64,000 nt of DNA from assembly GCA_019746095.1 (NCBI GenBank), contig JAIESL010000002.1:100603-164602 (forward strand). The letters run 5' to 3'. This document shows positions 14,361 to 46,021 of the stretch, one piece after another. The notes under the pieces are model-generated. The model saw nothing but the letters and a program-made list of their open reading frames with translations, did no database searches and was not told the DNA's origin. This DNA is from Caulobacteraceae bacterium (lineage in GTDB: Bacteria > Pseudomonadota > Alphaproteobacteria > Caulobacterales > Caulobacteraceae). Position numbers and translations under genes: made by a program. Position 1 is the stretch's first letter. Each line of letters starts with the position of its first letter.

Positions 14361-14465
14361 GAGGGGCGAGGGGCGAGGGTCGAGGGGTGAGTGGGGAGGG
14401 ACGTCTCCCGCCTCGCTGACAGGGCTTCACCGACACTGGCACCTCGCCTCTCGACCCTCTTGACC
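14361..14465. repeat. Heptamer-armed hairpin element A: (GAGGGGC/GAGGGTC)n ... (CCTCGCC/CCTCGAC)n
   Basis: Five degenerate heptamers at 14361-14395; complementary arm at 14442-14465 (15/17 match). Confidence 0.75.
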
Positions 14466-14468
14466 GTG

Positions 14469-14488
14469 CCACTGTTACAGCATAGTGG
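14469..14488. promoter_or_regulatory. Candidate YerC/TrpR-like operator
   Basis: CCACT-N10-AGTGG palindrome 7 bp before the yerC ATG. Confidence 0.4.
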
Positions 14489-14495
14489 AACGCGC

Positions 14496-14816
14496 ATGAA
14501 CGACACCCTGCCCCCCAAGGCCGTGCACAAGGCGGCCGACGACCGGCTCGCCCTCTATGACGCCCTGCTGTGTCTGAAGACCCGCGAGGAGCTGGACGCC
14601 TTTCTCGCCGACCTGTGCACGCCGTCGGAACTTCGGGCCTTCGCCGAGCGCTGGGCCGTGGCGCGCCTGCTGGACGAGCAGGTGCATTCCTACCGGGAGA
14701 TCGCCGCCGAGGCCCGGGCCAGCCCGACCACCGTCGTGCGGGTCGCCCGCTTCCTCAAGGAAATGCCGCACCAAGGCTATCGCCTGGTGCTGGACCGCCT
14801 GAAGACCAAAGCCTGA
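14496..14816 (+). CDS. TrpR-like YerC/YecD regulator heading the his operon
   Basis: FLADLCTPSEL....ERW.VARLL, SYREIA and TTV.RVARFL motifs. Confidence 0.9.
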   Translation: MNDTLPPKAVHKAADDRLALYDALLCLKTREELDAFLADLCTPSELRAFAERWAVARLLDEQVHSYREIAAEARASPTTVVRVARFLKEMPHQGYRLVLDRLKTKA

Positions 14817-14838
14817 AACAGAAAGTCTGAGTCCCCCC

Positions 14839-15720
14839 ATGAGTACCGTCCAGGGTCGGCTGCGTATCGCCGTCCAGAAATCCGGCCGCCTGTCCGACCG
14901 CAGCCTCGACCTCGTCCGCGACGCGGGCCTGCGCGTGGTCAAGGGCAACAACGACCTGCTCTACCGGGTCGAGAACTATCCCATCGACCTGCTGCGCGTG
15001 CGCGACGACGATATCCCGACCTTTGTCGCCGACGGCGTCTGCGACCTCGGCATCGTCGGCGAGAATGTGCTGGAGGAGGTCCGCAACGGCGGCCCGACGG
15101 CCGAGGTTCTGATGCCGCTGGGCTTCGGCCGCTGCACCCTGAAGATCGCCGTCCCACCGACCCTCGACTACGCCGGCCCGACCTCGCTGGACGGCCTGCG
15201 CATCGCCACCTCCTATCCCAAGATCCTGCGTCGCTATCTGGATGCCCAGGGCGTGTCCGCCGACATCGTCACCATGCGCGGTGCGGTCGAGGTCGCCCCG
15301 CGGCTCAAGCTGGCCTCGGCCATCTGCGACCTCGTCTCGACCGGTGCCACCCTCGAGGCCAACGGTCTCGCCGCGAAGGAAACGGTGCTGGACAGCCAGG
15401 CCGTGCTGATCAAATCGCCGGTCGCCCCGGAGCCCGGCCTGCAGCACCTGCTCGACAGCATCATCGAACGGATGGCCGGAGTGGTGTCCTCGCAGGGGGC
15501 CAAATACGTCATGCTCAACGCCCCCCGCTCGGCCCTGGCCGAGATCACCGCCATCCTGCCCGGGGCCGGCGCGCCGACGGTCATGCCCCTGGCCGGCCGT
15601 GACGATGCCGTGGCCGTGCACGCCGTCTGTCAGGAGGCGGTCTTCTGGGAAACCCTGGAGCGGCTCAAGGCCGCGGGGGCTTCTGCCATTCTGGTCCTCC
15701 CGATCGAGAAGATGATGTGA
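14839..15720 (+). CDS. hisG: ATP phosphoribosyltransferase, long form
   Basis: IAVQKSGRL, IATSYP, GAVEVAP and DLVSTGATL motifs, plus C-terminal regulatory domain (PIEKM). Confidence 0.96.
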   Translation: MSTVQGRLRIAVQKSGRLSDRSLDLVRDAGLRVVKGNNDLLYRVENYPIDLLRVRDDDIPTFVADGVCDLGIVGENVLEEVRNGGPTAEVLMPLGFGRCTLKIAVPPTLDYAGPTSLDGLRIATSYPKILRRYLDAQGVSADIVTMRGAVEVAPRLKLASAICDLVSTGATLEANGLAAKETVLDSQAVLIKSPVAPEPGLQHLLDSIIERMAGVVSSQGAKYVMLNAPRSALAEITAILPGAGAPTVMPLAGRDDAVAVHAVCQEAVFWETLERLKAAGASAILVLPIEKMM

Positions 15721-43101: not shown

Positions 43102-43196
43102 CGATCGGACTCCATGGGGGACCGCCCCCGTTAGCACTGCAGGGGCCATCGGGCGACCGCTTGCCGACTCACACCGGCTGGCCCGATGCTGCCCCC

Positions 43197-43820
43197 ATGG
43201 CCGAATCGCCCGCCAACCCCGCCATAAGGCTGCGCAGCCGCCCCGCCACCGAGGCCCTCATCATCGAGGCCGGTGAGCGTATCCTGCTGCGCGACGGCTT
43301 CCCCGGCCTCAATGTCCAGACCCTGGCGGCCGAGGCCGGCTGCGACCGGAAACTGGTCTATCGCTATTTCGACGGTGCCGACGGCGTGGTCACCCGCATC
43401 GCCGCCCGCGCCCATGCCGAGCTGGTCCACACGCTGGACGCCACGCCCCCGGCCGGGTCCGAGACCCTGCGCGCCTTCGCCCGCGAGAGCCTGTCGGCCT
43501 GGCTGGGTGCCCTGCGCGCCAGTCCCCTGACCCTGCGGCTGATGGCCTGGGCCCTGGTCGAGGCCACGCCCCTGCTCAACCGCATCGAGGACGAACGGTC
43601 CGCCGTGCTCCAGGCCTGGATGCGCGAGCGCCGGCCCCGCCTGCGCCTGCCCCCGGCCGGCGACGCCGTGGCCATCAATGCCGTCCTGCTGGCGGCCGTC
43701 CAGCACCTCGCCCTGACCGGCGAGGCCCGTCCGGGCACCGGCGGCGTGGCCCTGGACGAGGCCGGCTGGGCCCGGATCCAGGCCGCGCTCGACGCCCTGC
43801 TCGCTGCCTTCCCCGATTGA
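43197..43820 (+). CDS. TetR-family regulator
   Basis: N-terminal HTH ([16 protein letters not shown]); divergent from dcyD. Confidence 0.85.
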
Positions 43821-43851
43821 AGCCCGCGCCGGGCAGGCGTAAGACTGGTTC

Positions 43852-43944
43852 GTTCTCCGGGGGGTGCCGCTCAAGGCGCTGAGATTGGCGTGATCGCCTG
43901 ACCCGTCGAACCTGATCCGGGTCATGCCGGCGAAGGGATGGGAA
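43852..43944 (+). ncRNA. TPP riboswitch
   Basis: GGGGTGCC...CTGAGA...ACCCGTCGAACCTGATCCGGGTCATGCCGGCGAAGGGA, directly upstream of thiC. Confidence 0.95.
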
Positions 43945-44005
43945 ACACGGTCCACGCCACAGGACCACCCTGCCGACGTCGGCGGACCTCCAACGAGAGG
44001 CCGCC

Positions 44006-46021
44006 ATGAACATCTCCGTCACGCCCCCCGCCCTTCCCGAAGAGCCCAATGTCGATCTGGCTCTGAAAGACGCCCGCGAGCAGGTGATGAAGGAGACCGG
44101 CACCATCCCGACCGGCGAACGCGCCGGGTCGCGCAAGGTCTATGTCGCCGGCGAACTCTACCCCGACATCCGCGTCCCCTTCCGCGAAGTGGCGGTTCAC
44201 CCCAGCGCCAATGAGCCGCCGGTGACCATCTATGACTCCTCGGGCCCCTATACCGACCCGACCGTCACCATCGACATCAAGAAGGGCCTGCCCCTGGTCA
44301 AGTCCAGCTGGCAGCTGGACCGCGGCGACATCGCCCCCGTCCTGAACCCGCGCGAGGTCAAGCCCGAGGACAACGGCCACGCCAGCGGCAAGAACCTGGC
44401 CCCCCGTTTCGACACCAGCCGCCACAAGGTCTTCAAGGGCGTCGAGGGCCGTCCGGTCACCCAGTACGAATATGCCAGGGCCGGGATCATCACCCCCGAG
44501 ATGGAATATGTCGCCATCCGCGAGAACCTGCGCAGGGAAGAGGCGAGGGTCGGGGGTCGAGGGTCGGAAGGCGGCTCCATCACCTTCGCCGACGGCTCAA
44601 CCATGCCCTCCCCGAACGCCGCCTTCTCCCCTTCCTCGACCCTCGACCCCCGACCCTCGACCCGCGACGGCGAGAGCTTCGGGGCAAGCATCCCCGACTA
44701 TGTCACCCCCGAATTCGTCCGCTCCGAAATCGCCCGCGGCCGGGCCATCATCCCGCACAACATCAACCATCCCGAAGTCGAGCCGATGATCATCGGCCGG
44801 AACTTCCTGGTGAAGATCAACGCCAACATCGGCAACTCGGCCGTCCTGTCCTCGGTGGACGACGAGGTCGACAAACTGGTCTGGGCCACCCGCTGGGGTG
44901 CCGACAACGTCATGGACCTGTCGACCGGCCGCAACATCCACAACATCCGCGACTGGATCATCCGCAACTCATCCGTCCCCATCGGCACCGTGCCGATCTA
45001 CCAGGCGCTGGAGAAGGTCAACGGCGTGGCCGAGGACCTGACCTGGGAGGTGTTCCGCGACACCCTGATCGAACAGGCCGAGCAGGGCGTCGACTATTTC
45101 ACCATCCACGCCGGCGTCCGCCTGCCCTTCGTGCCGATGACCGCCAAACGCGTCACCGGCATCGTCTCACGCGGCGGCTCCATCATGGCCAAATGGTGCC
45201 TGTCGCATCACCGCGAGAGCTTCCTCTACGAGCATTTCGAGGACATCTGCGACATCATGCGGGCCTACGACGTCTCCTTCTCTCTCGGCGACGGCCTGCG
45301 CCCCGGCTCCATCGCCGACGCCAATGACGAGGCCCAGTTCGCCGAGCTGCGCACCCTCGGCGAGCTGACCAAGATCGCCTGGGCCAAGGGCTGTCAGGTC
45401 ATGATCGAAGGCCCCGGCCATGTGCCGATGCACAAGATCAAGGCCAATATGGATGAGCAGCTGAAACACTGCCACGAGGCGCCCTTCTATACGCTCGGGC
45501 CCCTGACCACCGACATCGCCCCCGGCTACGACCACATCACCAGCGCCATCGGTGCGGCCATGATCGGCTGGTTCGGCACGGCCATGCTCTGCTACGTCAC
45601 GCCCAAGGAGCACCTCGGCCTGCCCGACCGTCAGGACGTCAAGGACGGCGTCATCACCTACAAGATCGCCGCCCACGCCGCCGACCTGGCCAAGGGCCAC
45701 CCGGCCGCCCGCCTGCACGACGACGCCCTCAGCCGCGCCCGGTTCGAGTTCCGCTGGGAAGACCAGTTCAACCTCGGCCTCGACCCCGAAACCGCCCGCA
45801 AATACCACGACGCCACCCTGCCGAAGGAAGCCCACAAGACGGCGCATTTCTGCAGCATGTGCGGCCCGAAATTCTGCTCGATGAAGATCAGCCAGGACAT
45901 CCGCCGGGATGCGGCGGCGCAGAATGATGCGGGGGGTTCGCTGGCGGAAGCGGAGGCCGGAATGGCGGAGATGAGCGCGAAATTCCGGGCCGGGGGTGGG
46001 GCCATTGAGGTGAAGGTGTGA
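44006..46021 (+). CDS. thiC: Phosphomethylpyrimidine synthase carrying an in-frame hairpin insertion
   Basis: [29 protein letters not shown] and CSMCGPKFC motifs. Confidence 0.97.
44544..44659. repeat. Heptamer-armed hairpin element B inside thiC
   Basis: Perfect 23 bp inverted repeat at 44544-44566/44637-44659, plus an inner 9 bp pair at 44567-44575/44618-44626. Confidence 0.92.

Follow-up and report, generated by a model that had tools for sequence, protein, structure and literature searches.

Heptamer-armed hairpins in a Brevundimonas genome and their probable relation to four-helix-bundle gene cassettes

Introduction

Four hairpin elements, here named A to D, lie in a stretch of 64,000 nucleotides (nt) of a Brevundimonas genome, referred to as the window throughout; in each of them a tandem array of G-rich heptamers is followed, beyond a short spacer, by an array of complementary C-rich heptamers. 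Repeats that resemble them in part are found in other bacteria. The short tandemly repeated repetitive (STRR) sequences of heterocystous cyanobacteria consist of specific heptamers (e.g., CCCCAGT) and are not defined as inverted pairs, and the Rickettsia palindromic elements are hairpin repeats, devoid of tandem-heptamer arms, that are tolerated in frame in conserved protein genes.

Paired arrays were described in two xanthomonads, each with 183-186 GGGAATC arrays and 70-75 convergent pairs (Rehm et al., 2015; PMC4692102). The Xanthomonas arrays comprised 2-26 units (mode 4), lay for the most part in intergenic DNA close to stop codons and were underrepresented between divergent genes; they were read as G-quadruplex motifs generally not associated with mobile elements, and S23p was never mentioned (PMC4692102). 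In Geobacter metallireducens, paired hepta- and octanucleotide arrays were reported as putative IHF/HU sites (Aklujkar et al., 2009; PMC2700814). In addition, the 428-nt intervening sequence (IVS) in helix 45 of the 23S rRNA of Coxiella burnetii contains an S23p open reading frame (ORF) and is closed by a terminal stem of 28 bp, at which RNase III cuts (Warrier et al., 2016; PMC4990558). It carries 2-3 tandem GACAGAT units, in a number that varies among strains, and a selfish or mobile nature, through a mechanism as yet unknown, has been proposed for it (PMC4990558).

Both paired heptamer arrays (Xanthomonas, Geobacter) and an S23p IVS with a heptamer stem (Coxiella) are already known, which leaves unsupported the view of the initial annotation of the window, made from its letters alone, which knew of no described equivalent in Caulobacteraceae. 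Our literature search found no paper joining heptamer pairs, rRNA IVSs and S23p genes; the Xanthomonas and Geobacter pairs, the cyanobacterial heptamers, the rRNA IVSs and the S23p family have been described separately, and each remains unexplained. Here we report that A-D belong to a genome-wide family. As the best explanation we propose, with a probability of roughly 0.6, that they are gene-less members of a class of heptamer-armed cassettes carrying a four-helix-bundle (4HB) gene, which are gained, lost and replaced at gene ends and whose arms would be kept complementary by recombination within the element and by slippage while being drawn to a heptamer specific to the genome. The genus gives unusually direct evidence that these separately described repeats, IVSs and proteins form one system: deletion from cassette to gene-less form, arm co-variation, heptamer dialects, site turnover and tolerated in-frame copies.

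The Brevundimonas elements share with the Xanthomonas pairs the arrangement of two close heptamer arrays, one per strand and convergent (54:2 in this genome). A, B and C carry GGGTCGA or GGGCTTA and not GGGNATC; D and about half of the family are free of GGG. Relative to Xanthomonas and Geobacter, Brevundimonas adds several heptamer types, including some not of the G-quadruplex type, a parent cassette, co-variation of the arms and turnover at sites. Dispersed intergenic heptamer arrays are a feature in common with STRR sequences, the closest precedent named by the initial annotation, from which the host and the heptamers differ. In-frame copies (thiC, mutL and an ABC-F gene) recall the Rickettsia elements, to which the sequence family is unrelated. 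The likeness to ORF-bearing 23S IVSs (Coxiella; also Leptospira) lies in a terminal inverted stem of at least 20 bp with tandem heptamers. The PF05635 gene inserted in those IVSs is here found only in two cassettes (contigs C87 and C130) and not in A-D, and whereas 23S IVSs occupy rRNA helix 9, 25 or 45, the Brevundimonas elements stand at mRNA gene junctions or inside protein genes.

Results and Discussion

The four elements of the window

Coordinates refer to the window, which corresponds to C138:100603-164602 of the assembly under study (G000; 3.05 Mb, 138 contigs, 67.5% G+C). Labels of the form G0xx denote the other Brevundimonas genomes compared, among which G023 is the closest relative and G043 a sister species. 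The elements, their arms and the host gene of B are the following:

14361..14459, no strand assigned: element A, between divergent genes
14361-14400: G arm of A, GAGGGGC/GAGGGTC units, degenerating
14442-14459: C arm of A, CCTCGCCTCTCGACCCTC (CCTCGCC TCTCGAC CCTC)
31995..32109, no strand assigned: element C, between divergent genes
31995-32018: G arm of C, TAGGGCT, 3.4 units
32053-32109: C arm of C, CCCTAAG, 8.1 units
38621..38723, no strand assigned: element D, directly next to the stop codon (read as TCA on the + strand) of gene 38727-39401, which is on the minus strand
38621-38650: G arm of D, TGGTGAT/TGGTGGT/TAGTGGT units (phase GGTGATT/GGTGGTT/AGTGGTT)
38695-38723: C arm of D, CAATCAC/CAACCAC units
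44006..46021, + strand: thiC (phosphomethylpyrimidine synthase), host of element B (ORF list; PDB hit 3epm, E = 0)
44544..44668, no strand assigned: element B, in frame within thiC, an insert of about 41 amino acids in ThiC
44544-44571: G arm of B, GAGGGTC units (phase CGAGGGT/CGGGGGT)
44634-44668: C arm of B, CCTCGAC, five units

All four were located as initially described, with 3-8 tandem heptamers, a spacer of 38-66 nt (about 40 nt in A, 38 nt in C, 47 nt in D and 66 nt in B) and then the reverse-complementary heptamers. Period 7 was found in all arms except the short C arm of A, listed at period 9 by Tandem Repeats Finder. The RNA folds, compared with dinucleotide shuffles, reached -61.7 kcal/mol (z -2.9) for A, -50.6 kcal/mol (z -4.4) for C, -60.8 kcal/mol (z -6.2) for D and -84.6 kcal/mol (z -7.8) for B. 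None of the spacers contains an ORF, and the PF05635 genes considered below are encoded outside the window; the spacer of D is a diverged copy of a conserved family core.

The Rfam search revealed no family at the elements or at the core-family loci, its sole match in the window being a thiamine pyrophosphate (TPP) riboswitch (RF00059, 64.5 bits; 43850-43956) directly 5' of thiC. Given this position and that of element B, the thiC mRNA bears both a riboswitch and an in-frame hairpin of 84.6 kcal/mol.

A genome-wide family of paired arrays

Among the tandem runs of G000, those of period 7 predominated (n = 52), with 14, 10 and 12 runs at periods 6, 9 and 12, respectively, and 0-1 at every other period between 4 and 12. 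The complementary partner of a G-rich arm was downstream 54 times and upstream twice, and that of a C-rich arm upstream 48 times and downstream 4 times. After removal of chance pairs composed of G and C only, 52 paired elements were left. The hairpins A-D are true members of this genome-wide family of about 55 small elements, which goes far beyond chance. The genome-wide search proposed in the initial annotation thus yielded pairs biased in period and in polarity, and the 7-bp period and the G-first order it had noticed in four elements proved to be properties of the family. It must be noted that reverse complementation leaves a G-first element G-first; the polarity is therefore a rule of structure, independent of the strand that is read.

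The heptamer types of G000 were TAGGGAT, TAGGGCT, GAGGGTC/GAGGGGC, TAGTGGC/TAGTGGT, TGGTGAT/TGGTGGT and GAGTGGC. Variants one base apart were mixed inside single arrays, which is at odds with the earlier division of the elements into three unrelated sequence families. The gene contexts were distributed as follows:

Between tandem genes: 26 elements; 802 background intergenic gaps
Between convergent genes: 14 elements; 219 background intergenic gaps
Between divergent genes: 5 elements; 314 background intergenic gaps
Inside an ORF call: 7 elements, of which only 3/7 are real

Convergent gaps were enriched (14/45 elements, with 16% in the background) and divergent ones depleted (5/45, with 24% in the background), and the arrays in convergent pairs stood at a median of about 4 nt from either stop codon. 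Given units that contain TAG or TGA and a period that is not a multiple of three, a stop falls in every one of the three frames, and by the G-first polarity the stops of the arrays meet readers from both sides. At C59:8600-8723 of G000, a hybrid G arm was observed in which GAGGGTC units are followed by TGGTGAT units, while the C arm pairs with the TGGTGAT part only; this may represent an arm caught in the course of replacement, or else a nested insertion.

Association with four-helix-bundle genes

Only two arm pairs of G000 had a long spacer (411-441 bp), and each of them enclosed an ORF of 116-122 amino acids. Both ORFs encode a PF05635/TIGR02436 "four helix bundle protein" (23S rRNA IVS protein; S23p), with a weak match to Avd of diversity-generating retroelements (DGRs):

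C87:12264-12611: PF05635 gene of a 4HB cassette, between heptamer arms
C130:44268-44633: PF05635 gene of a 4HB cassette, between heptamer arms

The two proteins are 41% identical to each other, and G000 has no PF05635 genes other than these armed ones. Their arms, TAGGGAT and TAGTGGC, are the two commonest gene-less types. The gene family found to co-occur with the arrays was PF05635, where the initial annotation had advised looking for a reverse transcriptase or an HUH or GIY-YIG nuclease.

A 4HB gene was present in 25/40 of the other Brevundimonas genomes. At 30 loci fetched from the genus, an array stood on at least one side in 22/30 and on both sides in 16, always G-rich on the left and C-rich on the right. 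The same armed layout was found across phyla at 80 further loci, from Alphaproteobacteria, Cyanobacteria, Chloroflexota, Planctomycetota, Bacillota, Acidobacteriota and others. At the 110 loci in total, a period-7 array occurred in 83/220 gene-adjacent windows and in 2/209 windows lying 760-900 nt away, with at most 5 for other periods, and among two-armed loci the G-left/C-right polarity held in 40/42. When the heptamer was mapped as a label on the tree of 4HB proteins, 40 changes were needed, compared with 57-62 in the five label shuffles printed. One clade with TAGGCAG arms spans three orders, with members in Brevundimonas, Mesorhizobium and Sphingomonadales.

A gene-less family derived from a cassette

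An all-versus-all comparison of the 52 spacers gave a single cluster of 18 elements with arms of the TAGTGGC/TGGTGAT type, and the remaining 34 were singletons with no similarity above the shuffle threshold. Element D belongs to the cluster; therefore, the uniqueness that had been attributed to all four spacers holds for A, B and C and fails for D. The 18 copies share an oriented core of 62 nt (GGCTGGCCGCCACCGGTGCG..GCGCGG.C.GCGCCGCCCTTCCGCYG.CAG.GA.GCGGCAAT), which aligns end to end with the 3' untranslated region (UTR) of the 4HB cassette of G043, from the stop codon (...CGAAAG TGA TTGGCTTCACGGGCAGCGGAAGGGCGGCGC...) to the (ACCACTA)n arm. The junction of core and cassette is AGTGATTG, a heptamer-like sequence that overlaps the stop of the ORF and is identical to the final G-arm unit. 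A single deletion between two direct repeats of AGTGATTG would drop the 5' UTR and the ORF and give the gene-less form. This breakpoint is common to 18 dispersed copies, so the derivative was copied. The 18-copy family, with element D, is a MITE-like internal-deletion derivative of a 4HB cassette that multiplied (MITE, miniature inverted-repeat transposable element). The core motif exceeded its reversed-pattern control only in G000, G042, G043 and G017.

The spacers of A, B and C resemble neither one another nor any sampled cassette, so that their descent from cassettes is suggested by architecture only. That unique spacers are cassette remnants was considered and rejected, as no convincing matches were found.

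With respect to MITEs, terminal inverted repeats, small size and a multicopy internal sequence shared with a parent are found in the 18-copy family including D, whereas A, B and C, with unique spacers, have no shared internal sequence; furthermore, there is no target duplication and the parent encodes a 4HB protein instead of a transposase. Like MITEs and the REPIN-RAYT system (PMC3116915), the genome has many short non-coding hairpins at gene ends and a few genes between inverted copies of the same repeats, and one Brevundimonas family arose, as in those systems, by internal deletion of a gene-bearing form. The likeness to REPIN-RAYT is an analogy only: the 4HB gene is not a RAYT and has no known nuclease or transposase fold, and the Brevundimonas arms are tandem arrays instead of a single palindrome, fluid in sequence and fixed in architecture.

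A non-coding repeat of about 650 bp, with copies up to 97% identical, directly adjoins four core-family hairpins. It was found in G000 at C126:24100-24750 and C133:19617-20252, and also on C61, C121, C107, C52 and C55; it showed no convincing ORF and no Rfam match.

Arm co-variation and dialects at orthologous sites

Element B interrupts ThiC between ENLRRE and RDGES, and residues 182-214 have no counterpart in the ThiC of C. crescentus (3epm). In 6 further species the same place was occupied by an insert whose spacer (...TITLADGS...) is conserved, and at least 12 species had the short ancestral form REQNAPCIRDGE. The arms at this site were as follows:

GAGGGTC: G000
GAGTGGC: G004, G019, G008
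GTGTGGG: G014
Degenerate: G002, G006

Within an element these arms were 79-100% complementary, but their identity between species was only 68-97%. A tree of the 450-nt flank, on which filled alleles are interspersed with empty ones, has too little power to tell gain, loss and recombination apart. A third thiC allele, in which some 70 nt of unrelated sequence are inserted at this position of the linker, was observed at L038, L039 and L046 (G013, G021 and G012, respectively); this ThiC loop is a general insertion hotspot.

In mutL, the conserved centre GWSGWQGWAAPATQ.AQIIPGLNERSARVEP was found in 30/30 genomes examined, and the arms around it were as follows:

GAGGGTC: G000
GGGGTGT: G042, G049, G045, G055
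GAGGGGC: G044
GAGGGAC: G009
GAGTGGC: G012, G019, G050
TAGGGCT-like, in which TGG has replaced the in-frame TAG: G021
A single, C-rich arm (stops would arise from a TAGGCAG partner): G013, G048, G008
Without arms: 8 genomes

In G000, the in-frame hairpin of mutL (C115:18175-18353) lies in the inter-domain linker of MutL, and another was seen in an ABC-F gene for a Uup-like ATPase (C73:9776-9862). Both are of the stop-free GAGGGTC type and share the peptide motifs EGRGS and DPRPST. Stop-free heptamer types are thus found occasionally in frame in disordered protein linkers (thiC, mutL and ABC-F), and in-frame copies are tolerated in essential enzymes.

Intergenic sites varied in the same manner. 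Orthologues of site A had GAGGGTC, GAGTGGC, TGGTGAT or GTCGTGA arms, or were empty. Site C was filled in 7 other genomes, with TAGGGCT, TAGGGAT, TAGGGAG or TAGGCAG arms that were degenerate in two of them, and empty in about 20, one of which is a close relative; site D was filled only in G000 and its closest relative, G023. An orthologous element has different heptamers in different species, its two arms having changed in concert.

Heptamers tend to conform to a "dialect" common to the whole genome. The heptamer class agreed across the sites of one genome in 10/28 pairs, with 4.3 expected from within-site shuffles (P = 0.004), and equalled the class of the resident armed 4HB gene in 13/27, with 6.3 expected (P = 0.0004). 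In addition, (TAGGCAG)3 arrays were frequent in all five genomes with a known TAGGCAG-armed 4HB gene and absent from 28/41.

Turnover of sites

Ten further G000 elements were checked in ten relatives. Filled sites prevailed in G005, G023, G042 and G017 and empty ones in more distant species, and 2/10 sites were empty in the close relative G023; the tabulation of filled and empty sites that the initial annotation had called for thus shows both states among close relatives. At two sites, the TGA or TAG of the first heptamer takes the place of the native stop codon. One site had three different elements in three species (TAGTGGT arms with the core, TAGTGAT arms with another spacer, and GAGGGTC arms), and another had a TAGGGCT element in G042 and a TAGTGGC-core element in G000. 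At one site the G005 core aligned with that of G000 solely as its reverse complement (score 48 versus 12), which implies an inversion of the spacer between the two arms. Fixed intergenic sites, most of them a few bases away from a stop codon, gain or lose an element, exchange it for one of another family or show it inverted.

Proposed mechanism and its weaknesses

A complete cassette would consist of inverted tandem heptamer arms, the G-rich arm being 5' on either strand, around a PF05635/TIGR02436 4HB gene. Recombination or gene conversion between the inverted arms would maintain their complementarity; the spacer inversion is read as a footprint of recombination between arms, and the same process would keep them complementary. 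Slippage would homogenise the units within one arm, and a trans-acting influence may draw the arms at separate loci to the heptamer specific to the genome, for which the 4HB protein of that genome and ectopic conversion among the dispersed arrays are candidates. The transcript would form a long perfect stem which, by analogy with the Coxiella IVS, RNase III would cut. A generative process in place of copying had already been suggested from the four elements: the joint change of the arms at orthologous sites and the dialects agree with it, whereas the 18-copy core family and the filled and empty sites indicate that copying occurs as well.

Rather doubtful, in our opinion, is a more specific version in which the pentamer of the PF05635 4HB protein is the trans-acting partner, each paralogue recognising its own heptamer with about one unit per subunit, and drives the creation, rewriting or spread of arrays together with the replication and recombination enzymes of the host. 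If so, the heptamer arms would be a protein-specified dialect imposed on the resident hairpins of the whole genome, including those of thiC and mutL, in a REPIN-RAYT-like partnership around a protein without a nuclease or transposase fold. Such a partnership would explain why heptamer repeats are, as has long been noted, in excess in bacterial genomes, and how rRNA intervening sequences originated. Independently of this version, the genus, a tractable relative of Caulobacter, makes two questions testable, namely what makes or moves the repeats and what role S23p/Avd-like proteins have outside DGRs.

Several results weigh against the descent of A-D from 4HB cassettes or against the mobility of the elements. 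None of the sampled genomes yielded a 4HB gene flanked by GAGGGTC arms, which are those of A and B, and the spacers of A, B and C and of 31 other elements match no sampled cassette. Genomes free of 4HB genes still bear arrays, e.g., G052 with 12 matches to the GAGTGGC pattern, and hence the link between arrays and 4HB genes is not absolute. No target-site duplication appeared in the filled/empty alignments of site D and the ten further elements, and movement was never directly observed. Neither a transposase-like protein nor a nuclease or a reverse transcriptase (RT) was identified as a partner, HUH and GIY-YIG genes not having been searched for. The pairing of the arms showed no sense-strand G.U bias (19:19 in cassettes, 10:18 in gene-less elements), so that selection for an RNA stem is unsupported. 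The 23S genes of six Brevundimonas genomes measured 2778-2798 nt, with full model coverage and without insert. Moreover, the dialect tests ignore phylogeny and are uncorrected for it, and the gene contexts of G000 come from a crude ORF caller based on the G+C content of third codon positions.

Some candidate mechanisms were rejected. The RT that had been suggested as a partner is not encoded in G000, and RT-dependent retromobility was discarded with no PF00078 match in G000 or in 33/41 genomes of the genus. Selection at the RNA level was likewise dismissed, there being no sense/antisense asymmetry in arm pairing and no bias of core orientation relative to transcription. A 23S rRNA IVS as the setting was rejected: none was found in the 23S genes of the six genomes, and the window elements lie in mRNA regions.

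Alternative explanations

We regard it as unlikely that the elements are a pure mutational by-product of local heptamer slippage and template switching across a quasi-palindrome, with no dedicated protein or transposition and the 4HB genes as mere passengers. The 34/52 singleton spacers, the lack of target duplication and of an identified enzyme and the persistence of arrays in 4HB-free genomes are in line with such an origin. The left boundary of site A (ATAGAG) and the sequence flanking site C (TAG...TAAG) also occur in empty alleles, and hence arrays could be seeded from local sequence. However, slippage and template switching leave unexplained the exclusive period 7, the G-first polarity (54:2 in the genome, 40/42 around genes), the 18 copies with a 62-nt core from a cassette UTR, the recurrence of one heptamer with one protein clade across three orders and the genome-wide dialects. 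An equally low likelihood is given to hairpins that serve the host and are selected at gene ends like repetitive extragenic palindromic sequences, be it as stabilisers of mRNA 3' ends, bidirectional transcription barriers, RNase III sites or arrays for nucleoid proteins. Their location fits such roles (convergent enrichment, divergent depletion, stop codons at a median distance of about 4 nt), the stems are long and stable, IHF/HU sites were proposed by the Geobacter authors and the Xanthomonas arrays are mostly transcribed. But no T-run follows the stems of A-D, copies lie inside thiC, mutL and the ABC-F gene, the pairing lacks strand bias, and the same site is empty or holds another family in close relatives, so that no site-specific function is conserved. 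A host-serving role would be compatible with the descent from 4HB cassettes as a secondary, domesticated one.

Two other accounts are far less probable. That the G-rich arrays exist to form G-quadruplexes, as proposed for the GGGNATC repeats of Xanthomonas and Nostoc, is hardly to be expected when about half of the family, D and the 18-copy core group among them, displays the same architecture with the GGG-free heptamers TAGTGGC/TGGTGAT and when the complementary arm would compete through duplex formation, even though at least 3-4 heptamer units of A, B and C contain a GGG tract and related repeats form quadruplexes in vitro (PMC4692102); with half of the arrays devoid of GGG, the quadruplex was rejected as a unifying feature. 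The polarity led us to consider break-healing scars, in which a telomerase-like activity would add G-rich heptamers to both 3' ends, which would then be joined with filler. Addition to 3' ends on both sides would match the G-first order, and some units resemble TTAGGG; against this, no RT was found in G000 or in 33/41 genomes of the genus, filler would not comprise a conserved core or enclosed genes, and one-armed copies exist within ORFs. This very improbable origin was set aside.

Other observations

At 14466-14491 of the window, 3' of element A, a conserved TTGACC is accompanied by the palindrome GTTCCACTGTTACAGCATAGTGGAAC (GTGCC... in G000). Both are retained throughout the genus in filled and empty alleles of site A, and they are probably the promoter/operator of the gene starting at 14496. 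No conserved 16S/23S rRNA motif was present in any contig of G000, and this draft assembly appears to be without rRNA operons.

Another small cassette was observed at sites following stop codons, at L300 (G049, orthologous to C135:40156 of G000) and at L061 and L070 (G016 and G018, site A). It consists of an ORF of about 115 amino acids, which by eye looks DUF559/Vsr-like, between REP-like inverted repeats of about 50 nt (CCCCTCCACCATCC...), and represents a second gene-in-hairpin design in the genus. Finally, L102 (G052, orthologous to window 31970-32116) carries a palindromic MITE-like insert of 75 nt, AGAGCATGAT...ATCATGCTCT, which occupies the same TAG as the heptamer element C in other species.

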